Shown: positions 18,584 through 43,552 of the stretch, in pieces
How positions within the stretch are numbered: the first letter of the stretch is position 1
Layout of the letters: each line of letters starts with the position of its first letter
Assembly (NCBI GenBank): GCA_045863395.1
Contig: BTVJ01000001.1
Coordinates: forward strand, 288,001-352,000
Source: Myxococcales bacterium
GTDB lineage: Bacteria > Myxococcota_A > UBA9042 > JABWCM01 > BTVJ01
Reading direction: 5' to 3'
DNA: 64,000 bases
Translations under genes and position numbers: made by a program
Notes under the pieces: model-generated
The model's database searches: none
Seen by the model: the letters and a program-made list of their open reading frames with translations, nothing else
Told to the model about the DNA's origin: nothing

Positions 18584-19262
18584 CGCCCGCATCCCGCCCG
18601 TCGTGGAGCTGGTCTCCGTCACCAAGCAGCTCGGCCACGGGGCGCAGGCCGTCGTCGTGCTGCGCGGCGCCTCGCTGGCCATCGCCGAGGGGACGACCGC
18701 GGCCGTCCGCGGCCCGAGCGGCAGCGGCAAGACCACGCTCCTCTTGCTGATGGCGGGCCTGGACCAGCCGACGGAGGGGAGCGTGCGCTTCCGCGGGGAG
18801 GCCATCGAGGCCTGGTCGGAGGACCAGCGCAGCGCGTGGCGGCGGGGGCGCGTGGGCTTCGTGTTCCAGGACTTCCGGCTGCTGCCGCGGCTGACCGCCC
18901 TGGAGAACGTCGCCCTGCCGCTGGAGCTGCTCGGCCGGAGCCCGCGGGAGGCGCGGGCGCGGGCGACAGAGCTGCTCGGCGGCCTCGGCCTCGCGAGACG
19001 CCTCGACCACCTGCCGGCGGCGCTCTCCGGCGGGGAGCAGCAGCGCACGGCCATCGCGCGCGCCTTCGCCCACGAGCCCGACGTGGTGTTCGCCGACGAG
19101 CCCACGGGCAACCTGGACCCACGCACGGCGGGTGAGGTGCTCGACCAGCTCCTCGCCACCGTCGCGGCCCACGGCACTACGCTCGTGACGGTCACCCACG
19201 ATGAGGAGGTCGCCGGCCGCATGCAGCGCCAGATCCGCATCGTGGACGGCCGCATCGCGTAG
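18573..19262 (+). CDS. ybbA: ABC transporter ATP-binding protein (YbbA/LolD-like)
   Basis: GPSGSGKTT, LSGGEQQR, FADEPTGNLD, VTHD; follows tesA; TTG start is inferred. Confidence 0.85.
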   Translation: MSLDARIPPVVELVSVTKQLGHGAQAVVVLRGASLAIAEGTTAAVRGPSGSGKTTLLLLMAGLDQPTEGSVRFRGEAIEAWSEDQRSAWRRGRVGFVFQDFRLLPRLTALENVALPLELLGRSPREARARATELLGGLGLARRLDHLPAALSGGEQQRTAIARAFAHEPDVVFADEPTGNLDPRTAGEVLDQLLATVAAHGTTLVTVTHDEEVAGRMQRQIRIVDGRIA

Positions 19263-19327
19263 CGGGCCGACGCCCGAGCCGGCGCCGCCTCGCCCTCCCA
19301 CCCGGGGTCAGCGCGCCGCGCGGCCCA
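19095..19327 (+). repeat. 233-bp exact direct repeat, copy 1 (3' end of ybbA, spacer and GT2 stop region)
   Basis: Base-by-base identity with 26377-26609 (offset 7282). Confidence 0.95.
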
Positions 19328-19664
19328 GGGTGCGGCGCAGGGCCAGGACCTGCTGGAGGTTGGCGAGGATCGTCCGGGCGTTGCGCACCTTGGACTGGCC
19401 GCCGAGGCGCGGGCGCAGCTCCGTCGGCTCGTTGACCCACCGGTGGCCGCCGCGGTCGGCCTTGAGGATCAGCTCCATGAGCACGGTCCAGCCGCGCCCT
19501 CCCACGGTGCGATGGTCGATGGTGTCGAGGAGGGGCCACCGGAACATCAGCGCGCCCTGGAGCACGGCGCACGCCTCCCGAACAACCGCCTCCAGGCATC
19601 AAACCTCGTTTCTGGCCGGGATCCGCGCCGATACGCTCAGCGCCGCCTCCTCTCAACACTGCGC
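19308..19664 (-). pseudogene. Internally deleted, diverged copy of the GT2 gene at 26590-27312
   Basis: Aligns to both ends of GT2 with about 370 bp missing; GTG start changed to GCG. Confidence 0.85.
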
Positions 19665-19678
19665 GCGGCCCTCCTCCG

Positions 19679-20067
19679 TCAGTGCGTCGCGCCGCGCTCC
19701 GCCAGCGCGTGCGACAGAAACAGCAGCCCCGTGGCGTGGACGACCCGCTCGATGCGGATCTCCTGCAGCACGTGCGCGCGCTGGGCATCCGAGAAGGTTG
19801 CGACCGTGGCGCGGAGCTGCGCCAGCTCGCTGCCACCGGCCTCCATCACGGCCTCGGCCCAGCCCAGCGCCGCCGCCACCCCGGTGGAGCGGCCGGCCGC
19901 CTGACCATGGATCGCCCCCTCCGCGGCCGCCGCGTCGATTCCCGCCATGGGGGCCAACTTCGGGAACAGCGCCCGGCACACGGGGCACCCGAGCAGCCTC
20001 GACATGCGCAGGAAGAAGGCGACGCGTCGCTGCCTCGACGCGCCCCTCCCCTACGAAGCCCCTCAGG
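19679..20067 (-). pseudogene. 5'-truncated, frameshifted copy of the AhpD-like gene at 27327-27818
   Basis: LLGCPVCRALFPKLAPMAGIDAAAAE retained; 2-bp deletion near 20025; 5' end absent. Confidence 0.85.
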
Positions 20068-20424
20068 TCCACGCCCGGGACGTTGCCCGCGCCGAAGATG
20101 ACCGGGATATCGTTGTCGACGGCGGCACTCTGAACTTCGGACCAGTTCGCGGTGACCTCAGGCGCCGGTGCATAACAACCCGATTCATCGAGGGTCACGA
20201 TGCGCCCCGCTGGCAGTCTGGTGAGCCCGCAGGCACGGCTTTGTCCTTCCAACCGTCCGATCTCCGGCGCCCAGGCCGCGGGCTGAGACGCCCCGGGTCC
20301 CGGCGTCCGGACAGACCACGCGAACGCCGCCCCGGACTCCCACACCGTCACGCACTCCGTCCTCTTGGGAGATGCGAAGGGTGCCGACCTGAGCACCGCG
20401 TGTCAGGCCCCCGCCTGCCCCGCC
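20066..20424. pseudogene. Two fragments of the 3' end of the beta-helix lipoprotein gene (29471-30958), the second one inverted
   Basis: 20066-20159 matches about 29581-29674 in the same orientation; about 20244-20424 matches the reverse complement of about 29675-29857. Confidence 0.8.
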
Positions 20425-20620
20425 AAGGCGCCCGTGCACAACAACCTGTGCCATTCGGGCCACGCTGCATCCCGACTGGTAGCCTGGCGAGGCATCGGGG
20501 AGCCGTCACGCGGACGTGGAAGCGCGGACGCGGGACGCGGGGACGCAGCATGGCGGGGCTGCCGAGCCTGGACCAGGCGGCTCCGCCAGCCCTGGCCGTC
20601 GCAGTCGCACCAGATCCCCG

Positions 20621-20719
20621 GGCCAGGACGAGTGTCGCGCCTGGACGATCAAGCGCAGCAGTCGCGCACAGGACGTCGCCGGCAAGATCCACAGCGACAT
20701 CGCGCGAGGCTTCATCCGA
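20621..20719 (+). pseudogene. ychF: Fragment of the ychF C-terminal (TGS) coding region
   Basis: Translates as [33 protein letters not shown], matching the conserved YchF E.RAWTI..G..A..AAGKIHSD..RGFIRAE motif. Confidence 0.75.
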
Positions 20720-20853: not shown

Positions 20854-20882
20854 TTGCCACGGCGTGCGTCCGGTGCTAGTCT
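20854..20882 (+). promoter_or_regulatory. Sigma70-type promoter for the islet operon
   Basis: TTGCCA-N17-TAGTCT with extended TG; AAGGAGG RBS at 20918-20924 precedes ATG 20930. Confidence 0.6.
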
Positions 20883-20929
20883 TCCAGACCGTCGACAGTC
20901 CAAACTCCCCCAGATTGAAGGAGGCATCC

Positions 20930-23168
20930 ATGTCCCCCCCCCCCCCCCGCCCTGCGCGTCTGGATAGGTCCAGCCGTAGTGCTCATCGTCGTGGCCAACT
21001 GGAGTGACAAGACCCGTGCGAGTGAGCCCAAGTGGACCGAGGTCGAGTCGACAGAAGTCACGCCGGCCGCAAAGGGCGCTGTCGTCGAAGTGGCCCTGAC
21101 TCGTGTCGCCGATGTCGCACAGAAGCTCACCGTAACGGCGCGGGCCAGCACCGGATGGACGTGCAAGGTCGGTGCTGGCGTTGAGGCGCTGGGGACCACC
21201 ACCAAGATTGACGCCATTGCTGGCGCGCCGATCCCGACCCTGATGGTATCACTCGAGCCAACCAACCCGGATGAGAACTTCGACAAGCCGTTCGTCGTCG
21301 TAGACCTGGTCGTCGAGGATGACGCACGCGACCAACGGACCTCCGTGAACCGAATCTTCCTGGTCGACAAGAGTGGCGTGCTCTCGACCACGAGCTACAA
21401 TGCTTATCTGGCAGGGCTGAGCGCAGGAACTGCGGGCGCTTACGCCATCGTGACGCCCGGCTTTTGGGGGCTGGCGCGACAGGAGCTCCAGAACGTCCCC
21501 CCGTGGGAGAATCCGGAGCTGCCAAAGGGCGACTGGGAGCAGCACGCGACGGGTACCGGAAAGCCGAGCGTGGAGACTGCGGCCGTCAGCTCCGCCCTGA
21601 CACAGGGATCCGCGAACGAGTCGACTTCGGGAGCGAGGGACGCGGGCGATGCGATGGGCTGCGCCGCGTCGGGCGGTTCTTCCGGCGGCACCATCCCCTT
21701 CGCCCTTCTCCTCCTCGGCTTGACGTGGAGCTGCCGGAGGCCGCGCCGATTGACAGGCCTCGCACCGGTCATGACGGCCATGCTGATCACGGGAGTGCTC
21801 GGCGGAGCACGAACAGCCCGGGCATCGAGCTGCTACTACTACGGCTACCTCACATTCTGGGATTCGAGAGGCTCGAACTTGCGAGTCGACGAGGCGGGCA
21901 ACCGCCTGGGCGCCTGCGAACCCGCGTTCACATCCTGCAACAGCTTCACACCAGGCTGTTGCTTCGCCGGTATCCCGAACGTCACGATTCACTTGCACAA
22001 GGACAGCCTCAATCCGAACAACATCGTGGCCACCAGCCAGACGGGCAACACCGGGTACTTCCTGCTGGAAGACGCGAACTGCAACCCTTCGGGGGTGCAC
22101 TATCTCAGCGTGGAGTATAGCCGCACCGGCTCACCTGCGACGCAGATCATCACGACAAGTCAATATGGATCGACCGCCTATCGGACGGCGCTCGGAACCC
22201 CGCTCACCGGAACAGCGACGTGGAACTACCTGCCAAACGTGTCCGTGAACAACGCCAACGACACGAACTCATCCACTGGAAATGTAGCGACTACTTGGGC
22301 GACCAGCTACCTGACGTTCAAGTCCCTCGACGCCGAGGGCGAGACACGATACCGCCGCTCCTACGGCAGCAGCAATACCTACGACCTCGTGTTGATGAGG
22401 AACTACCAAGTACCAAAGTCGCAGGCTCTCTGCGGCAGCGAAACCATAGAGATCGACGTTGGTGACGAACGTACCGACACGCCGTCTCATGAGTTCGGAC
22501 ACTCGTTGCACGGGCGCGTGGTCGGCTGCAACGGCGCTCAGCCTGCGTTCCCCGCCGGAGCGTCGAGTTGGGACTGGTCTGGCGGGTCTGAGGGACGAGC
22601 GATCAAGGAGGCGGTGGGAAGCCTCGTGGCGCAGCTCGCGTTCTGGGACCCTTCGACAACGGAGATCCCATCTTTCACGTCCCGGTACCCGTGCTGGGAC
22701 ATGAGCTGGAACACCAATGCCAACGACGCGTCCGTCTCCCGAAACGTCTGGTACGGGCTGTGGGAATATATCGACACCAGCACCAACAATGCGGACAGCT
22801 TCGCTGACTACGTTGACCTGACCCTGAAGGATCTTTTTGATGCCATGGTGCTGTGGCAAGCGTCTCCGGCGCAGAACGGGGTGAACCGGTCATCCGCCGA
22901 GTGGTTCTATACGGCGACAGCGCAGTCCTGCGCTTCCCATCAGGCCTGCTGCGACTACTCCGGCTGCCCCTACCCGGGATCCGTGTGCGAGAACGGCGTT
23001 TGCCAGATTGGCGACCCGCATGGAAACAACGTTCGCGATTGGGTATACTGGATGGCGGTGCAGCAGGGGGCCGGCGAGACGAACTATGCAAGAACGCTCC
23101 CTTCGTCGCCGTGTCTCGGCGTCGAGGACAACACGTGGCCCTTCAACGGCGGCTTCCGGCTTGACTAG
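20930..23168 (+). CDS. Secreted multidomain protein with internal MYXO-CTERM, second signal peptide and HExxH zinc metallopeptidase domain; frameshifted at the poly-C tract (in-frame GTG at 20979)
   Basis: 729-aa open frame from 20979; [29 protein letters not shown] at 22488-22502 followed by EGRAIKEA. Confidence 0.75.
20934..20948 (+). repeat. C15 homopolymer just after the start codon (putative slipped-strand switch)
   Basis: ATG-T-C15; C14 would join ATG 20930 in frame to the long ORF. Confidence 0.8.
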
Positions 23169-23177
23169 GCATCCGCA

Positions 23178-24482
23178 ATGATCGGTCACGATAGGCAGTG
23201 CCTCCTGCACTCTGCCATCATGCTTGTCGCACTTGCTGGATGCGGCGCGTGCGCTGACGCCAGGGGGCCATCGGGTCCCCCAGCATCGTCGCCCTCGGAC
23301 GTCTCACGCGCCAATCTGGACGACGCCCTCTTGCATGATGCTCCCGGCGCTGAGGCAGCAGCATGCTTCACCAATTGTCTGAATCGGACGTGCGGCGACG
23401 ACGGTTGCGGTGGGATCTGCGGGGCCTGCGCGCCGGGGCAGGCATGTCACGGCGGGGCCTGCGCCTGCGAGCCTCGGTGCAGGAAGGACGACGGGAGGTG
23501 CGGGATCGACGGGTGTGGCGGATACTGCCAATGCGCTCCGGGGCGAATCTGCGACGAGGTGGCGGGGGCGTGCCTGGAGCCCGCCGCGTCGTGCAAGGCG
23601 GGCTTCTGTATCATCCCCGCGGGGAGCTTCATCATGGGAGGCCTCGGAGTCGAGGCACCGAAGAACGAGATCCCGCGGCACCCCGTGATCTTGACGCGGT
23701 CCTACGAGATACAGCAGACCGAGACCACCCAGGCGCTCTGGATGGAGGTGACGGACACGGACGTGAACCCGTCGATCTTCGCCGCCTGTGGGCCCGACTG
23801 CCCGGTGACGAATCTGACGTTCTTCGACGCGCTCCTCTTCGCGAACGCGATGAGCGCGAAGGCGGGGCTGCCGCCGTGCTACGAGTTGGTGGAGTGCCAG
23901 GAGCTGTTCGAGGGGTTCGGCGCGGAGTGCGAGGCCGCCCAGTTCGCCGGCCCGGATTGTCCCGGCTACAGACTGCCGTCGGAGGCTGAATGGGAGATGG
24001 CCGCGCGCGCCGGGTCCCACACGTGCTTCCCCGACGGGCAGGATCAGACGGGACCGTGGAGCTGCCACCCGAAGGAGCCGCTGGTCGAGACGGGGTGGTT
24101 CTGTGCCAACAGCGACGTCTCCTTTGCGGGCTGCGTGACGTGCGTCGACGCGCACCCGTCCGCGTTCTGGAACACTTGCTGCGGGCCTCACCCGGTCGCC
24201 GGAAAGGCGCCGAACGCCTATGGGCTGTTCGACACGAGCGGGAACGTCGGGGAGATCACCGGAACGGTCTTCGAGGAGACCGGGCCAAGCGATCTCGAAG
24301 TGGACCCTGGATTCTCTGAACCGTTCAGGGCGGGGCAGACCTTCTCTCTCCGTGGAGGATCGTTCGCATGGGGCAACACCGGTTGCTGCTCGACTACGCG
24401 CCTGGCCATCGGCATGAACTATCAGTCGATCGCGGCCGGTGTTGTCGGTATCCGGCTCGCGCGCACATTGGACCTGCCATGA
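23178..24482 (+). CDS. Formylglycine-generating enzyme (SUMF1/FGE-sulfatase) domain lipoprotein with Cys-rich N-terminal repeats
   Basis: LAGC lipobox; CGDDGCGGICG; IPAGSFIMG, YRLPSEAEWEMAARAG, NAYGLFDTSGNV.E, RGGSF, GIRLAR. Confidence 0.88.
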   Translation: MIGHDRQCLLHSAIMLVALAGCGACADARGPSGPPASSPSDVSRANLDDALLHDAPGAEAAACFTNCLNRTCGDDGCGGICGACAPGQACHGGACACEPRCRKDDGRCGIDGCGGYCQCAPGRICDEVAGACLEPAASCKAGFCIIPAGSFIMGGLGVEAPKNEIPRHPVILTRSYEIQQTETTQALWMEVTDTDVNPSIFAACGPDCPVTNLTFFDALLFANAMSAKAGLPPCYELVECQELFEGFGAECEAAQFAGPDCPGYRLPSEAEWEMAARAGSHTCFPDGQDQTGPWSCHPKEPLVETGWFCANSDVSFAGCVTCVDAHPSAFWNTCCGPHPVAGKAPNAYGLFDTSGNVGEITGTVFEETGPSDLEVDPGFSEPFRAGQTFSLRGGSFAWGNTGCCSTTRLAIGMNYQSIAAGVVGIRLARTLDLP

Positions 24483-24496
24483 GGGAGGCCGCGGAT

Positions 24497-26278
24497 ATGA
24501 CGAATGTCGACCTGCCCTTCTTACAACGGCTCCGCCCGGTCATTATTGCGTGGGGGATGGCGGTCCTCTGTGCCGGATGCACGACTCAGTCGGGGCACGC
24601 TGTCGCGCCGGCCCCGCAGGTGACCTCAGTGCTCGGCGCAATGAGCGTGGACCCGAGCTGTGTGGTCGTGATCGAAATCGGCACGAACGCGAAGGATAGC
24701 AAGCTCGGGGCAGCGCTGGCGGCGGGCCGGGACGTCGATGGCGACGGAGTCGCGGACATCGTCGCCGGGGCACCGGGGGCAGAGAGCCTCCACGGCGGAA
24801 TCGCGTTGCTTCTTGGCTGGGGCCCCGACGGAGCCCCGTCGTCGACCTGGCTTGGCGGCGACGAGCTGGACCTCGGATACCCGAGCGGCTATGGACACGG
24901 CGTCGCCCTCGGAGACTTCGATGGGGACGGGTACGCCGACGCGGCCGTGGGGGCGCCGTTTCACTCCGGCGGGGCCAAGAAGGGCTCCCTTGTGGTCCAT
25001 GCCGGAGGCCCGACGGGTCTCTCCGCCACGCCGTCCATGGTGATCAGCGGGGGCGCCATTGGGATTGGAGGCTCGATGGCCGGCGCCGATGTCAATGGAG
25101 ACGGCTTCGACGATCTGGTCGTGTCGGGATCGGGGGACGACCCCATCGCGCACGCTTCGCTCTACCTCGGAGCGGCCGGCGGCCTCAGCGCGAAGCCCTC
25201 ATGGACCTATCTCGGAGGCGCAGTGAACTCCATCCTCGACATCGCGGTGGCTGGGGTGGGCGACGTCAACCACGATGGCTACGACGACGTGGCGGTCGTC
25301 ATGGCACACGGTCGAGCGAAGCTGTTTCTCGGCACGAGCGATGGCCTGGAGGCAGAGCCTGCCTGGGAGGACTCATCGGCAGCCCCCTTCGAGCTGTCTG
25401 TCGCTGCGGCCGGAGATGTGGACGGCGACGGGGTGGCGGATGTGCTGGTCGGCAACCGGCGCTTCGAGGGTCCACCCGGGGAGGGATCAAGAACCACGAA
25501 CGCGGTCGGCCGCGTCGCGCTCTACCGAGGGACCCCAGCGGGCCTCGAGCAGGAGCCTTTCTGGACGTATGTCGGGACCGTGGAAGACGAAGAACTCGGC
25601 ACCTCCGTGGGGGCAGCGGGGGACTTCAACGGGGACGGCTACGGCGACTTCCTCGTCGGGGCCCCGAGGTACGACGTCGACGATCCGGGCCAACCGCAGG
25701 AGGGGCGCGTGCTGCTCTTCCTCGGTGGACCGGACGGACCTGGCACGGCGCCTGCCGTCGTGGTGGAGGGCAACGCCTGGGTGGCCAAACTGGGTGAGAC
25801 GGTCGCCGCGGCGGACGTCGATGGTGACGGACGGAGCGACATCATTGCCGGAGCTCCCGGGGCATTCTTCGGTCGGGGAGCGCTCTACGTGGCGACCGCT
25901 GCCGCCATCGACTCCTGCAACACGAGTGTCGGAGACGGCAACGTGGAGACAGGGGATGGTGAGGGAGCGGACGCCAGCGGGGACTCCGGCGTCATGCCGG
26001 GCGAAGACGCCATCGACGCTTCCATCGACGGCGACGCCACCAACACCCTGGACGGGGACGGCGGAGCGATGGGGCCCCTCGATGCGGTTGTCGCGGAAGA
26101 CTCCGGGCGGGTCCGTGACCACACTCCAGCCGGCGATGACGAGCCACAAAGCTCCGGCGCCGCATCGGGGGGCTGCGGCGGCTGTTCGGCGAGCGGGGCG
26201 ACGGAGCCGGGCTGGCTCTGGCTCGCAGCCCTCCTGCTCCTGCTACGGATGCGTCGTCGCCCCGCACGCTCGGTCTGA
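24497..26278 (+). CDS. FG-GAP (integrin alpha-like) repeat protein with C-terminal MYXO-CTERM
   Basis: Repeated GDVDGDGxxDxxVGAP units; GGCGGCSASG..WLWLAALLLLLRMRRR; GGGAGG RBS (alternative start 24479). Confidence 0.88.
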   Translation: MTNVDLPFLQRLRPVIIAWGMAVLCAGCTTQSGHAVAPAPQVTSVLGAMSVDPSCVVVIEIGTNAKDSKLGAALAAGRDVDGDGVADIVAGAPGAESLHGGIALLLGWGPDGAPSSTWLGGDELDLGYPSGYGHGVALGDFDGDGYADAAVGAPFHSGGAKKGSLVVHAGGPTGLSATPSMVISGGAIGIGGSMAGADVNGDGFDDLVVSGSGDDPIAHASLYLGAAGGLSAKPSWTYLGGAVNSILDIAVAGVGDVNHDGYDDVAVVMAHGRAKLFLGTSDGLEAEPAWEDSSAAPFELSVAAAGDVDGDGVADVLVGNRRFEGPPGEGSRTTNAVGRVALYRGTPAGLEQEPFWTYVGTVEDEELGTSVGAAGDFNGDGYGDFLVGAPRYDVDDPGQPQEGRVLLFLGGPDGPGTAPAVVVEGNAWVAKLGETVAAADVDGDGRSDIIAGAPGAFFGRGALYVATAAAIDSCNTSVGDGNVETGDGEGADASGDSGVMPGEDAIDASIDGDATNTLDGDGGAMGPLDAVVAEDSGRVRDHTPAGDDEPQSSGAASGGCGGCSASGATEPGWLWLAALLLLLRMRRRPARSV

Positions 26279-26376: not shown

Positions 26377-26609
26377 GACGAGCCCACGGGCAACCTGGAC
26401 CCACGCACGGCGGGTGAGGTGCTCGACCAGCTCCTCGCCACCGTCGCGGCCCACGGCACTACGCTCGTGACGGTCACCCACGATGAGGAGGTCGCCGGCC
26501 GCATGCAGCGCCAGATCCGCATCGTGGACGGCCGCATCGCGTAGCGGGCCGACGCCCGAGCCGGCGCCGCCTCGCCCTCCCACCCGGGGTCAGCGCGCCG
26601 CGCGGCCCA
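26377..26609 (+). repeat. 233-bp exact direct repeat, copy 2 (orphan ybbA 3' fragment 26377-26544)
   Basis: Identical to 19095-19327; begins mid-gene at DEPTGNLD. Confidence 0.95.
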
Positions 26610-27312
26610 TGGTGCGGCGCAGGGCCAGGACCTGCTGGAGGTTGGCGAGGACCGTGCGGACGTTACGCACCTTGGACTGGCCGCCCAGGCGCGGGCGCAG
26701 CTCCGTCGGCTCGTTGACCCACCGGTGGCCACCGCGGTCGGCCTTGAGGATCAGCTCCATCAGCACGGTCCAGCCGCGGCCCCCTTGGGTGCGGAGCTCC
26801 ACGGTGTCGAAGAGGGCGCGCCGGAACATCAGCGCACCTTGGAACCGGGGGAAGGTGCCGAACAGCACCCGAAAGAGGAGCCGCTCTGCGGCTGACAGGG
26901 CTTTGGCGAGGAGCGGTGCAGGCCGGTCGGGCAGATAGCCGAGGACCAGGTCCGCCTCGGCCATGCGCGGCAGGAAGCGTTCGATCACGGCGGGGGAGAT
27001 CTCGCCATCGGCGGGCAGGAAGATCACGCACTCACAGCGCGCCTCGCGGAAGCCGGTCTGGTAGACCGCGCCGAGGCCCTGGTTCGGGGCGTGATGGACG
27101 GCGCGAACGCCGAGGAGCTCGCCCGCGAGGCGGTCCGCCAGGGGTCCCGTCCCGTCGGTGCTCCCATCGTCGATGATCACGACCTCCCACGCCGGAGCGC
27201 AGCGCAGAAGGACGGCGCACGCCTCCCGGACGACCGGCTCCAGGCCCGTGACCTCGTTGTAGGCCATGATCAGCGCCGACACGCTGGGCGTCGCCACTTC
27301 GCCGCTCTGCAC
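26590..27312 (-). CDS. Glycosyltransferase family 2 (DPM1-like)
   Basis: IMAYNE, IIDDGSTDGT, HAPNQGLG, PADGE; GAGGAGG RBS before GTG. Confidence 0.9.
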   Translation of the reverse strand: MQSGEVATPSVSALIMAYNEVTGLEPVVREACAVLLRCAPAWEVVIIDDGSTDGTGPLADRLAGELLGVRAVHHAPNQGLGAVYQTGFREARCECVIFLPADGEISPAVIERFLPRMAEADLVLGYLPDRPAPLLAKALSAAERLLFRVLFGTFPRFQGALMFRRALFDTVELRTQGGRGWTVLMELILKADRGGHRWVNEPTELRPRLGGQSKVRNVRTVLANLQQVLALRRTMGRAAR

Positions 27313-27326
27313 GCGGGCCTCCTCGG

Positions 27327-27818
27327 TCAGTGCGTCGCGGCGCGCTCCACCATCGCGCGCGGCAGGAAGAGCAGGCCCGTGGCGTGGACGACGCGCTCGA
27401 TGCGGATCGCCTGCAGCAGGTGCGCGCGCTGGGCGTCCGAGAGGGCAGCGGCCGCGGTGGGGACCTGCGCCGGCTCGTCGCCGCCGGCCTCCATCACGGC
27501 CTCGGCCCAGGCCAGCGCCGCCGCGGCTTCGGCGGGGAGGCCGGCCGCCTCTCCGTGGATCGCCCGCTCCGCGGCCGCCGCGTCGATGCCCGCCATGGGC
27601 GCGAGCTTCGGGAACAGCGCCCGGCACACGGGGCAGCCGAGCAGCTTCGACATGCGCAGGAAGAAGGCGACGCGCGTCGCCGGCTCGACGCGGCCCTCCC
27701 CCACGAAGCCCCCCAGGAACTCGGGGAGCCCCCGCACCGCGCGCGGCCCTTGTGCGGCGGCCTCACGGGCGAGGAAGGAGAGGGTGTAGGGTCCCGGGAG
27801 CTGGTCTGTGTTCGTCAT
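27327..27818 (-). CDS. AhpD/carboxymuconolactone decarboxylase-like protein
   Basis: Helical protein with GCPVC and AAALAWAEA; AGGAG RBS. Confidence 0.6.
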   Translation of the reverse strand: MTNTDQLPGPYTLSFLAREAAAQGPRAVRGLPEFLGGFVGEGRVEPATRVAFFLRMSKLLGCPVCRALFPKLAPMAGIDAAAAERAIHGEAAGLPAEAAAALAWAEAVMEAGGDEPAQVPTAAAALSDAQRAHLLQAIRIERVVHATGLLFLPRAMVERAATH

Positions 27819-27981
27819 GGTCGGCTCCTGTGCGAGGGGGCGCCCGGCGGGGGCGCCGGGGCGGACTCTACGCCCGCCCGCGGCGCGTAGACAAGTGGTC
27901 GTGATGGCGGGACTTCGGACGTGACGCACCCCCCGGGACGTGATACTTGCTGCCCAGGCATATCCCGCCAAGGAGGCTCTG

Positions 27982-29226
27982 ATGTATGATTTTCTCCTGA
28001 CCGACGAGCAGCGGACGCTCCGCGACGAGGTGCGGGACCTGGTGCGCTGGGTGCCCCGCGACATGGTCGTCGCGATGGACAAGGACGAGATCCGCTTCCC
28101 GCGCGAGTTCCTCCGCGAGGCGGGGCGCCGGAACCTGCTCGGCTGCCGCTACCCGAAGCAGTGGGGCGGCCGGGGCCTCGACTGGCAGGCCGCGTGCGTC
28201 GTGATGGAGGAGGTCGGCACCCTCGGCTACATCTTCGCGTGCACGTTCGGCGTCGGCGCCGAGCTGGTGTGCGACGCCATCATGCGCCACGGCACGGACG
28301 CGCAGCGCGAGCGCTACGTGCGCCCCCTCCTGCGCGGCGAGCTCTTCGCCGCCGAGGCCCTCACCGAGCCCCGCGGCGGGTCTGACTTCTTCGGCGCCAC
28401 GACGACCGCCATCGACCGGGGCGACCACTTCATCCTCAACGGCCAGAAGCGCTTCATCGTCGGCGCCGAGGGGGCAGACACCTTCCTCGTCTACGCGCGC
28501 ACCGACCCGGACGCGAAGCCCCACAAGGGCCTGAGCGCCCTCCTCGTGGACCGGGGCGACGGCGTCTCCGTCGAGTACGTCTACGGCCTGATGGGCTGCC
28601 ACGGCGGCGGCACCGGGCGCGTGGTGTTCAAAGACGTGCGCGTCCCGAAGGAGAACGTCGTCGGCCGCGAGAACGGAGGCGCGGCGGTCTTCGAGACCAT
28701 GATGATCCCCGAGCGCCTCGGTACGGCGGCCATGACCATCGGCCCGGCCCGCGCAGCCCTCGAGGTCGCGGGCACCTACACGACCCGCCGCAAGGCCTTC
28801 GGGCGCCGCATCAACGAGTTCCAGGGCGTGAGCTTCCAGGTGGCCGAGGCGTCGATGCTGCTCGACGCGTCGCGCTCCCTCGTCTACACGACGGCGCGCG
28901 CCGTGGACGCCGGCGAGGACCCGGCCCGCACGCGGCGCTACATCAGCGAGACCAAGAGGTTCGTCACGGAGAGCTGCCAGAAGGTCGTCCACAACGCCAT
29001 GCAGGTCATGGGCGGCATCGGCTACACGGACGTCTACCCGGTGGAGCGCCACCACCGCGACCTGCGCCTCGCCTCCATCTGGACCGGCACCAACGAGGTG
29101 ATGAGCATGATCATCGCCCACGAGTGGTACGCGGAGCACGCGGCGCGCCGCGCCACAGGCCGGGAGCGGGACCTCGAGGCCGACGCCATCCACGCCACCG
29201 ACGTCGCCGAGAAGGTGTACGAGTGA
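27982..29226 (+). CDS. Acyl-CoA dehydrogenase
   Basis: ALTEPRGGSD, LNGQKRFI, RKAFGR.I.EFQ, QVMGGIGY, IWTGTNE; AAGGAGG RBS. Confidence 0.95.
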   Translation: MYDFLLTDEQRTLRDEVRDLVRWVPRDMVVAMDKDEIRFPREFLREAGRRNLLGCRYPKQWGGRGLDWQAACVVMEEVGTLGYIFACTFGVGAELVCDAIMRHGTDAQRERYVRPLLRGELFAAEALTEPRGGSDFFGATTTAIDRGDHFILNGQKRFIVGAEGADTFLVYARTDPDAKPHKGLSALLVDRGDGVSVEYVYGLMGCHGGGTGRVVFKDVRVPKENVVGRENGGAAVFETMMIPERLGTAAMTIGPARAALEVAGTYTTRRKAFGRRINEFQGVSFQVAEASMLLDASRSLVYTTARAVDAGEDPARTRRYISETKRFVTESCQKVVHNAMQVMGGIGYTDVYPVERHHRDLRLASIWTGTNEVMSMIIAHEWYAEHAARRATGRERDLEADAIHATDVAEKVYE

Positions 29227-29470
29227 CCCCCTGGTCCACCGCCGGGCCCCGCAGTGGCGGGCGCACCGGCCTCCCCCCACCGACTGGATGAGGCGGTCCG
29301 TGGGGCGCCCCGCGGACGTCGCCCACGACGGGCGCCCGAACCGATCCGGCGGCAGCTCCTGTTGCGCGGGCCCTTCTGCCTGGTGCGGGTCTGTGGGTCG
29401 AGGCGACGTGCTCCTTGCACCACGCAGGGAAGGAGGTCACGCGTCGCTCGCCCGCCAACGAGCGGGGGCC

Positions 29471-30958
29471 TCACGGTGCGCCGCCATGGGCGCCGAGGTC
29501 GGAGCCGTCCTCGGCGGCGCCAAGGGCCGGGCTCCCGGGGAGGAGGCGGAAGTCGTGGGCGGCGGCATCCACGAAGAGGGGGTCCACGCCAGGGAGGTTG
29601 CCCGCGCCGAAGGTGACCGTGATGCCATTGTCGACGGTGGCGCTCTGGACGTCGGACCAGGTCACGGTGACCTCGGCGGGGCAGGATGCGGCCTGACACG
29701 AGGTGCTCAAGTCAGCGCCCTCCGCGTTTCCCCAGAAGATGGCGTTCGTGAAGGTGTGGGAGTCCGGGGCGGCGTTCGCCTGGTCGATCTGGACGCCGGG
29801 GCCCGGGGCGCCGCAGCCCGCGGCAAGGGCGCCGTAGATCGTCACGTGGTCGAAGGTGGAGACGGTGGGGGCGGCCGGGTCGGATCCTGCGTCCAGGTAC
29901 ACGTTGCCGCCGCAGTTGCTGTCGTAGATCTCGTGGGAGGCGATGCAGGTCGCCGCGTCGTCGCAGAAGAAGCCCCCGCCCGCCACCTCGGCGCGGTTTC
30001 CGCGGTAGACGTTCCCGCTCAGCCGGGCCGTCGTGTGCTGGCCCTGCCCGACCATGGCGCCGACGTAGAGGCCGGCGCCCCAGGCGGTCACCGTGTTGTC
30101 CGTGAACAGGTTCCCCGTCACGGTGAGGTCCGCGCAGAAGAGGTAGAGGCCGCCGCCGTGGCTTGTCTGCGGCTCGTCGCCCGCGTTCGCGTCAATCCAG
30201 TTGTCCGCGACGGTGACCTCGTTGCTGGCCGTACCGTCGTCGAGAGCACCTCCACCGCCGCGACCGCAGGAGTTGCCGGCGATGACGTTGCCCCGGATGG
30301 CCCCTGACACGTTGCTCAATGCGAAGCCACCACCGACGAGGCCTGGCGCGCAGTGGTTGCCGTGGATGTGGTTGTTCGTGAGGTCGAAGCGCTGCGACGC
30401 CCAGTGCACGCGAACTACGCCCTGCGCGTACCCAGTGATCTCGAAGCCGTCGATCACCGTGCGCTGGTCTCCGGTGGGGGCCTCGTCCCGGACCTCGAAG
30501 AAGGCGCCTGTGCCGTCGCCCAGCGCCCGCGAGACGTACAGGGCGGAGTCGCGATCCTGGAAGCCCTGGCCTGACCGGAAGCCGCCGGCCAGCGTGAGGG
30601 ACTTCGTGCCTGGGGCGAGCTTCTCCGGGTACGTGCCCTCGGCCACGCAGATGACCGCACCCGAGGGGGCGGCGGTGATCGCAGCGGTGATCGTCGGGTG
30701 GGGGCTCTTGGCGCTGCCGTCCGCGGCACCGGCCTGTGCGGCATCGACATGGAGGGTGCAGGTCGGGATCGCGGTGGCGCGCGCGACGCGGAGGCCGCCG
30801 CGTGGGACGTCTGCGGTGGGCGCCGCGTCGCCTCGGGGCGCGTCGGCCACGGCGTCCGAGGCGCCACTGCCAGCGTCCGCCAGGGCGCCTTCCGCCCCTC
30901 CGTCCGCACAGGCTGCCATCCACCCAAACGCTGCGACCAGGACCACGCGCCAGCACAT
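29471..30958 (-). CDS. Right-handed parallel beta-helix (pectin lyase-like) lipoprotein
   Basis: MAAC lipobox; GSAKSPHPTITAAI, VAEGTY.E, IDGFEITG, repeated N....GGG units, DPLFVD....DFRL..GSPA. Confidence 0.82.
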   Translation of the reverse strand: MCWRVVLVAAFGWMAACADGGAEGALADAGSGASDAVADAPRGDAAPTADVPRGGLRVARATAIPTCTLHVDAAQAGAADGSAKSPHPTITAAITAAPSGAVICVAEGTYPEKLAPGTKSLTLAGGFRSGQGFQDRDSALYVSRALGDGTGAFFEVRDEAPTGDQRTVIDGFEITGYAQGVVRVHWASQRFDLTNNHIHGNHCAPGLVGGGFALSNVSGAIRGNVIAGNSCGRGGGGALDDGTASNEVTVADNWIDANAGDEPQTSHGGGLYLFCADLTVTGNLFTDNTVTAWGAGLYVGAMVGQGQHTTARLSGNVYRGNRAEVAGGGFFCDDAATCIASHEIYDSNCGGNVYLDAGSDPAAPTVSTFDHVTIYGALAAGCGAPGPGVQIDQANAAPDSHTFTNAIFWGNAEGADLSTSCQAASCPAEVTVTWSDVQSATVDNGITVTFGAGNLPGVDPLFVDAAAHDFRLLPGSPALGAAEDGSDLGAHGGAP

Positions 30959-42729: not shown

Positions 42730-43012
42730 CGTCGACTCTCTTCGAGGTGTGGGGTGAGCGGCAGCTCGTGGCCGCTGAGGACAAGAGACGCCCCCCTGCC
42801 GAGGCGCTCACCGGTGAATCGGCCCTTCGATGTAACCAACGCGGCGTGGCGCGGCGAGGTCTCGGTGTCCCTGCGAAGAGCCCCCCCCCGGGTCACGAGT
42901 CCAGGGCCGCGCAGCGCGCTGTCCGCTGGCGTGGTGGTCGCGCCTGTCTAGGTTCGATGGTGATGCTCCCCGCTCGGGTGACCAATCCCCAGGGTCCGAG
43001 GAGGTTCCGGAC

Positions 43013-43552
43013 ATGAAGTGGAGTCTGCTTGGCACAATCAGGCGGATCCTTGACCCGCCGCCCCGCGAGGAGACTGATGCCCCCCCCCTGAGCGACAGAG
43101 AGCACGCCACGCTCTATGCGCTCCTGGAGGTCGCCGCCGGCGCATCGGACCTGCCGCGCGAGCGCCTTCGCGACCACCTCGCCCGCCAGGTTGCGGCTAC
43201 CCCGGCCCTGCTCGCGGAGTATCGCTCGGCCGCGCGCCTGCTCGATCGGGTCGCGCGGCGCGGACACGGCGAGCGTCCCTTCGCGGCGCTGGACCTTCGC
43301 GCCCGCGACAGCGTGCTGCGGGAGCTCCTGCGGACCTACCCGCACGAGGAGCGAGAGCCAGCGTGGCGCCGCTTGACCCGCCTGACGGGCGACAACCTCG
43401 ACCTGGTGATCGCTCCTCGGGACGCGCGGCGCCTGCGGAACCACGTGCTGCGGGACCTCCTGCGGCTGTACTACTCGAGCACGGCCGGCTGGGCGGTCGT
43501 CAGCTACGACCGGCGACCAGGGCGCGCCAAGCGGCAAGGGGAGCTCCGATGA
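43013..43552 (+). CDS. Gluconate 2-dehydrogenase subunit 3-like protein
   Basis: F..L....RD.VL and LYYSS..GW..V.Y...PG patterns; ATGA-coupled to a GMC gene. Confidence 0.6.
   Translation: MKWSLLGTIRRILDPPPREETDAPPLSDREHATLYALLEVAAGASDLPRERLRDHLARQVAATPALLAEYRSAARLLDRVARRGHGERPFAALDLRARDSVLRELLRTYPHEEREPAWRRLTRLTGDNLDLVIAPRDARRLRNHVLRDLLRLYYSSTAGWAVVSYDRRPGRAKRQGELR

Follow-up and report, generated by a model that had tools for sequence, protein, structure and literature searches.

Three genes on the forward strand make up the locus described here, which lies in a 64-kb stretch of DNA that was analysed as a whole and is referred to as the window. Gene 1 encodes a large protein with predicted export signals and a predicted protease domain, gene 2 a predicted lipoprotein and gene 3 a protein with FG-GAP repeats (Table 1). 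Gene 2 starts 9 nt after the gene 1 stop codon without a clear Shine-Dalgarno (SD) sequence, and gene 3 has its own. A weak, sub-cut-off Pfam match of gene 3 to TcdB_toxin_midN is due to the FG-GAP repeats and was rejected. A gene of the gene 2 type follows the protease gene in 8 of the 10 family loci with at least 1.3 kb of downstream sequence. Its FGE-sulfatase domain has 39 matches in the genome, several of them directly behind switched protease genes, and proteins with this domain are possibly inhibitors, immunity proteins or binding partners.

The three genes form a lower-GC cassette (0.63 for gene 1, 0.73 for the flanks) between duplicated flanks. The left flank, 19095-20164, is a shortened and diverged copy of the right flank, 26377-29841, with blocks of 95%, 84% and 86% identity; one block is inverted, and the duplication includes the 3′ end of an ABC-ATPase gene. 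Two arms of a dispersed, MITE-like repeat, found on more than a dozen other contigs and mostly in inverted pairs with a spacing of about 170 nt, lie at 20158-20252 and 20422-20491. Just upstream of the promoter candidate, a 100-nt fragment (20619-20718) matches, with 88% identity, the 3′ end of a gene that is intact on contig C83; the fragment is possibly a scar of island integration. The C-terminus encoded by the C83 gene resembles that of the YchF GTPase.

At the start of gene 1, the motif AAGGAGG (20918-20924), the ATG at 20930, a single T (20933) and a run of 15 C (20934-20948) follow each other in the order that the initial annotation had described. As assembled, the ATG frame gives a product of 25 residues and ends at the stop codon 21005-21007, in agreement with the earlier call, so gene 1, a gene of 745 codons, is out of frame and OFF. 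The long frame is open from 20919 to 23168, and the ATG is joined to it at the tract lengths 11, 14 and 17 proposed earlier and also at 8 and 20; a change of one unit thus toggles the reading frame. The earlier translation for a tract of 14 C needs one correction, since it has four prolines and not five. Before codon 272, the long frame has no start with an SD motif besides ATG 20930. The deposited protein is called from an internal GTG at 20979 and lacks the signal peptide, which illustrates how automatic annotation truncates such genes.

Apart from the C15 tract, no run in the window exceeds 9, in line with the earlier remark that no other homopolymer of this length was noticed; the next longest are two C9 runs. 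These lie 200 nt apart (42881-42889 and 43080-43088), the second directly 3′ of an ATG with GGAG upstream. In the whole genome, four internal C/G runs of at least 15 are seen where 0.01 would be expected by extrapolation from the genome's own run-length spectrum, and seven of at least 12 where the same spectrum gives 0.9. The promoter proposed upstream, TTGCCA (20854-20859) and TAGTCT (20877-20882) with a 17-nt spacer, is present; it is weak, agreeing with three of six consensus bases at -10, and falls below the threshold of a consensus promoter scan, which does not list it. TTGAC motifs can be seen by eye 5′ of the starts in five homologous loci.

Table 1. Features of the locus (positions in the window)
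Feature	Position	Strand	Basis or remark
Left copy of duplicated flank	19095..20067	.	95% and 84% identity to 26377-26843 and 27196-27717
Promoter-like TTGCCA-N17-TAGTCT	20854..20882	+	Sequence; weak, candidate
Shine-Dalgarno AAGGAGG and ATG start	20918..20932	+	Sequence
C15, predicted slippage switch, OFF as assembled	20934..20948	+	Four letters fewer in run X7, 15 in run X2
Rest of predicted signal peptide 1, cleavage after TRA	20949..21020	+	Translation; homologue comparison
N-terminal Ig-like beta-sandwich domain and linker	21021..21656	+	Model pLDDT 81.6; Foldseek
Internal MYXO-CTERM-like motif (Gly-Cys, hydrophobic helix, Arg cluster)	21657..21749	+	Family conservation
Second predicted signal peptide, ends ARA	21750..21824	+	Begins with TTG, GGAGG upstream
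Cys-rich thermolysin-fold domain, predicted zinc protease	21825..23168	+	Model pLDDT 94, pTM 0.93
Gene 2, predicted lipoprotein with FGE-sulfatase domain (PF03781)	23178..24482	+	E 7e-28
Gene 3, FG-GAP repeat protein with C-terminal MYXO-CTERM	24497..26278	+	TIGR03901 22.4 bits, cut-off 20
Right copy of duplicated flank	26377..27717	.	Sequence comparison

Architecture of the gene 1 protein

All parts of the gene 1 layout are conserved in its family: a signal peptide, a domain of about 210 residues, a Gly-Cys pair, a hydrophobic helix, an Arg cluster, a second hydrophobic stretch ending in A-x-A and a Cys-rich domain of 447 residues. The plausible signal peptide that the initial annotation had proposed is supported by the homologues, whose signal peptides end at the matching place, before a conserved Trp. 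The N-terminal domain has no Pfam match, and its best Foldseek matches are Ig-like sandwiches (E 2e-4 to 1e-3).

The segment that follows has the tripartite make-up by which MYXO-CTERM is defined, namely a Cys motif, a transmembrane helix and an Arg cluster (available text of PMC11980579). In the alignment of 47 family members, the Gly is kept in 42, the Cys in 39 and R268 in 33. The motif sits at residues 242-272 of 744 and not at the C-terminal end, and, unlike MYXO-CTERM proteins, the gene 1 protein does not reach the cut-off of TIGR03901 or TIGR03382. Two paralogues fall under such cut-offs, with 19.4 of 20 bits (TIGR03901, on contig C31) and 13 of 15.85 bits. The genome also encodes a myxosortase core (NF040914, 134.4 bits, cut-off 100; model accession from the accessible part of bioRxiv 10.1101/2023.06.07.544157). 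An internal MYXO-CTERM motif is described for MXAN_5598, where it is followed by a beta-barrel/OmpA part (PMC11980579, same text), whereas in gene 1 it is followed by the second signal peptide and the protease domain.

Thermolysin is the best structural match of the predicted model of the 447-residue domain, with Z 15.0 and an rmsd of 4.5 over 254 aligned residues (Foldseek E 2.9e-4), and the match to M36 has Z 13.6. The HExxH zinc motif is HEFGH, residues 519-523 (22488-22502), and Glu559 (22608-22610) lies on model helix 256-273. His, Glu and His of the motif are kept in 26, 25 and 26 of the 47 family members, and Glu559 in 26 of 47, tracking the members with HExxH. About 45% of the aligned members have lost HExxH; they keep the fold-defining Cys residues, G522, R528 and the invariant E553 and are, judged by sequence, a probable clade of pseudo-proteases.

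Gene 1 shares with the gluzincins of the thermolysin (M4) and fungalysin (M36) families the predicted fold and the HExxH on a helix; Glu559, in the next helix, is a candidate for their third zinc ligand. The protein differs from them in an identity of only about 10%, in an extra beta-sandwich and many Cys residues, in the Ig-like domain, anchor and second signal peptide that precede the protease domain, and in the lack of a Pfam M4 match and of an FTP/PepSY propeptide. No Pfam family, including Peptidase_M4, FTP and PepSY, matches the protein at E 0.1 or better, and NCBIfam names nothing for it. Even though it stands outside M4 by profile, the model predicts a zinc protease that would work like a gluzincin. 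Motifs and models together suggest that the product of gene 1 is a polyprotein, one half of it Ig-like and anchored and the other an exported protease, and its family is flagged here as a predicted, unnamed protease family with an internal sorting signal.

Simple repeats in homologues and across the genome

A HMMER search of 1.84 billion representatives gave 87 relatives including the gene 1 protein, while a word-index protein search gave the protein itself only. Of 106 other genomes of the class, 8 have the family, and in a sample of 401 genomes from the phylum it is confined to that class. Named homologue loci belong to Myxococcales, Anaeromyxobacteraceae and Deltaproteobacteria MAGs.

Homologues were to be searched for the tract according to the initial annotation, and repeats are indeed found at the equivalent site in all four thermolysin-fold paralogues of the present genome and in 5 of 13 distinct 5′ ends of homologues (counted after merging of duplicates; G029 and G025, without a 5′ end, dropped). 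In these five, from organisms of other families, (GTCT)n of 5 to 11 copies separates the RBS-ATG from the hydrophobic core; two are ON, with 5.8 and 7.5 copies, and three are OFF, with 5.2, 10.8 and 10.8. Three of the five are near-identical proteins that have 5.2, 5.8 and 7.5 copies and differ in state. The five are kin and not independent cases, and in a quick tree (ignoring the row of L034, which is in the wrong frame) they form a clade apart from the paralogues of the present genome. One of them is also broken further downstream. The other eight 5′ ends have no long coding repeat: two have a repeat upstream of an intact start and six have none. The two upstream repeats, (GCAGGAA)14.7 at L031 18-120 and (GCTGTTCG)3.6 at L028 436-464, are possibly promoter-level repeats.

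The repertoire of the present genome was built from a genome-wide repeat survey and tblastn with the products (Table 2). Sixteen of 18 related secreted-protease units, of the thermolysin-fold, metzincin and subtilase classes, carry a simple repeat in their first codons; 4 are ON, 10 are OFF and 2 are split by the assembly, and 4 ON among 14 callable units is what free drift of lengths would give. A 148-residue fragment on C167 was left out of the count. Eight different repeat units are used at the equivalent position. In all four thermolysin-fold paralogues, three of which were found by protein search, the repeat lies between the RBS-start and the signal peptide, and 7 of the 9 units that were reached by protein similarity instead of by repeat also have one. 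A multi-locus phasome has at least 10 putative phase-variable genes per genome, and the present genome has 16 such units, with length variation shown for one only.

Table 2. Repeat-bearing units besides gene 1
Unit	Repeat	State or remark
C31 paralogue	(GA)16.5	ON
C48 paralogue	(CTCGCTCT)6.6	OFF
C20 paralogue	Imperfect 8-mer array	OFF from SD-bearing ATG; upstream in-frame ATG without SD
C128 subtilase	C15	OFF
C95 subtilase	C12	OFF
C26 subtilase	C10 run	OFF
C186 subtilase	(AGGACGGA)7+	Contig begins in repeat
C121 subtilase	(GA)27	Contig begins in repeat
C165 single large protease	(TC)17	ON
C166 single large protease	(TC)15	OFF
C4 leader	(AC)11(TC)9.5	OFF
C67 leader	G11	OFF
C115 leader	G15	ON; overlaps C120 by 55 nt
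C40 leader	C14	ON
C26 leader	G16	OFF

Three of the subtilases are over the Pfam S8 cut-off. At C4, C67, C115, C40 and C26 the repeat-bearing gene is a small exported leader that precedes a HExxHxxGxxH/D protein of about 1000 residues, and paralogous leaders differ in length and state (G11, OFF, at C67 and G15, ON, at C115). The end of contig C10 carries RBS-ATG-(GA)n. A weak, sub-cut-off Pfam match of C166 to Binary_toxB is due to calcium-binding repeats and was discarded.

The position of the repeats was also assessed by an automated test for an SD and start at most 100 nt upstream, a coding-like frame of 150 codons and a hydrophobic stretch. It was passed by 8 of 18 long repeats (7 without one false positive) and by 64 of 3000 random sites, an enrichment with a Fisher p below 1e-7, the length thresholds having been chosen after the repeat list was known. 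The controls gave 27/1200 for C/G6, 18/1200 for C/G7, 6/305 for C/G8, 0/17 for C/G10 and 0/77 for repeats of a multiple of three. The false positive, a C12 run on C92, is mid-gene and in frame. The test missed C40 and the G16 of C26, and its contig-end margin excluded C115. The C10 and G11 runs of the repertoire are within chance length. Repeats on C45, C143, C38 and C47, a 10-mer on C31 and an 11-mer on C48 are not at starts of secreted genes and were left out; among them, the heptamer (TCGCGAA)5 at C38 28300-28334, which is in frame and close to the 5′ end of a gene for a non-secreted product, is a possible further switch. Both mutS and mutL are open, over cut-off and intact by sequence, and any hypermutability may be localised as opposed to that of a general mutator.

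Such a pattern could in principle arise by neutral decay, with repeats that grew by chance in recently acquired dispensable islands and OFF genes that are young pseudogenes instead of reversible switches. Several observations point that way: the genes lie in lower-GC islands with duplicated flanks, 10 of the 14 callable units are OFF, and the subtilase paralogues C9 and C109, like the homologue L034, are broken by other lesions. These two paralogues are the units without a long repeat. In each, an in-frame TAG, which may be a nonsense lesion or a site of read-through, interrupts the gene a short way past the signal peptide, and the long frame beyond it is intact. However, decay would not explain why the repeats stand in the first codons and are not spread along the genes, why eight unrelated units converge on one place, or why the OFF genes are otherwise intact, with frames of 624-1198 codons. 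ON and OFF alleles also coexist among the near-identical homologues and in a SNP-free background (run X7, below). Decay is therefore considered improbable.

The switch device itself seems, from the sequences compared, to recur in the gene 1 family, and the dense repertoire has so far been seen in the present genome alone. In 12 other genomes, 13 subtilase homologues whose 5′ end is present are all intact, with a longest run of C10 or G9 and none of at least 11, so the dense repertoire is not class-wide; a run of (TC)9 is absent from five other genomes. In the relative G034, a phasome was considered and rejected, as none of its three other (GTCT)n runs stands at the start of a gene. These runs, at L053, L058 and L064, are (GTCT)9-11 and form the end of a repeated element that lies next to related sequences on three contigs; two of these contigs break off within the repeat.

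Length variation among samples

The window or part of it is present, always as assembled contigs, in 20 of 24 listed runs from 12 studies. Most of these 20 runs carry the label wastewater, bioreactor, sludge, biofilm or aquatic, and none gut or host; together with the homologue titles (Myxococcales, Anaeromyxobacteraceae) and the myxosortase, the labels support the earlier assignment to a probably free-living myxobacterial lineage. A pattern scan of JGI metagenomes for the flanks of the tract gave 0 matches.

The tract was compared in 8 of the 20 runs, and among the matches listed, two have a contig that crosses it. The contig of X2, possibly the source sample, has a tract of 15 and stops 15 bases beyond it. 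The contig of X7, from another study, has no substitutions over 20907-21500 and four letters fewer at the tract, which places the gene in frame and ON; its depth is 5.8, and it has 27 bases left of the tract, below the recommended flank of 31. Tract length thus differs between otherwise identical genomes, as judged from one contig each, with a short flank on one side. Contigs of X1 and X12 hold all 15 C from the right and continue with 1 and 4 unaligned letters, which may point to tracts longer than 15. In X5, X8, X11 and X13 the contigs break off in or close to the tract, among the matches listed; in these low-depth runs the breaks were not accepted as a sign of variation. At two other loci, the C20 paralogue (three Logan members) and the C40 leader (two Logan records), repeat length equals that of the present genome, so no variation is visible there.

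A poly-G template troubles short-read chemistry, and C15 might be a consensus error for an allele that is truly in frame. Six of the eight runs have no contig across the tract among the matches listed, a poly-G loose end is present in one run, and many contigs of the genome end in poly-C/G junk, all of which would suit such an error. On the other hand, the separately assembled X2 contig also reads 15 (it may be from the source sample), and units of 2, 4 and 8 bases are part of the pattern too, in other organisms and other assemblies. An error, which of the alternatives is the one least to be expected, would change the state call here and leave the tract and the repertoire unaffected.

The preferred reading is that C15 is a slipped-strand on/off switch, one of about 16 on predicted secreted proteases, and it is given a probability of roughly three in four. 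The contingency locus of the initial annotation is supported by the position of the tract, the in-frame allele of X7, the repeats of the paralogues and the variable (GTCT)n of the homologues.

Proposed mechanism and comparison with known systems

If the tract behaves as in established phase variation, replication slippage would change the run by one or more bases at a high rate, and the reversible change in length would toggle translation of gene 1. Cells with C11, C14 or C17 would make a precursor of 744-746 residues. As motifs and models suggest, Sec would export the N-terminal Ig-like domain; the internal MYXO-CTERM-like helix would be lipidated and cut by myxosortase, so that the Ig-like domain stays anchored in the membrane, while the second signal peptide would export and release the thermolysin-fold zinc protease. 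Gene 2, so close downstream, is likely to be translationally coupled and hence partly switched too. A clonal population would hold many protease combinations. The purpose may be bet-hedging on costly or targeted extracellular enzymes, which is a guess and the weakest step of the scheme.

The switch may not be escape-proof. Directly 5′ of the second signal peptide, gene 1 has an SD-TTG (TTG 21750 with GGAGG), and the protease half might be made regardless of the tract. The main rival to the switch is accordingly that the tract varies without silencing the protease: this internal start, or slippage in transcription or translation, would still yield the catalytic half, and the tract would tune its level or control the anchored N-terminal domain. 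Long homopolymers can slip in transcription. Against such a leak, the internal SD and start are found in gene 1 alone among 15 family loci, about 15% of random sites have an SD and start no more than 100 nt away, and the 2-, 4- and 8-base units at the sister loci fit DNA slippage better. The leak is unlikely, though less so than neutral decay, which in turn is a shade less improbable than a consensus error.

Read as a switch, the C15 tract has its closest parallels in the SSR contingency loci and phasomes of Neisseria, Campylobacter, Haemophilus and Helicobacter, in which, as far as the available texts of PMC11868660 and PMC3315296 go, genes for exported proteins have a long simple repeat in the 5′ part of their coding sequence, the frame shifts when a unit is gained or lost, and at least 10 loci occur per genome. 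An N-terminal bias of SSRs is reported in the same portion of PMC3315296. According to the accessible text of the 2025 review (PMC11868660), phasomes of at least 10 genes are known from host-restricted species, and their apparent restriction to pathogens is a major question. The present host, in contrast, is an uncultured environmental Myxococcota with an 8.8-Mb genome; nearly every target is either a predicted secreted protease or the leader of a protease operon, eight units are used side by side, and switching is predicted from assembled sequence. The mechanism is already known from pathogens, and what would be new is the multi-locus repertoire in a non-host organism, a candidate counter-example to the pathogen restriction of phasomes with 16 addressable loci.

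Two other systems are comparable in part. Putative SSR switches outside pathogens are described for type I R-M genes of environmental bacteria (PMC7383803, text available), which are single loci of methyltransferase systems and not a whole set of exported enzymes. Within the phylum, phase variation is known from the yellow and tan forms of Myxococcus xanthus, a global colony switch and not one of per-gene frameshifts; the words "slipped" and "repeat" are absent from the available text of PMC3986340. The openly accessible main texts covered contained nothing on SSR switching in Myxococcota or in predatory or free-living bacteria, or on such protease repertoires; subscription papers and the review's 378-genome long-SSR dataset may list myxobacteria.

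A wider reading is tentative and perhaps slightly more doubtful than probable. It holds that, in a Myxococcota lineage which is free-living and probably predatory, almost the entire island-encoded arsenal of secreted proteases has come under independent slippage switches, evolved repeatedly from different units, so that a clone would be a combinatorial mosaic of enzyme producers. This would amount to division of labour, or to bet-hedging towards prey and phage, outside any host, and one switched family would be a two-product polyprotein split by myxosortase and signal peptidase. The predatory lifestyle is assumed from the phylum.

Two RNA runs contain sequence words of the window at shares of 0.15 and 0.05. 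Since about a dozen public studies of wastewater, sludge and aquatic settings include the organism, ON and OFF frequencies should be readable from existing raw data.
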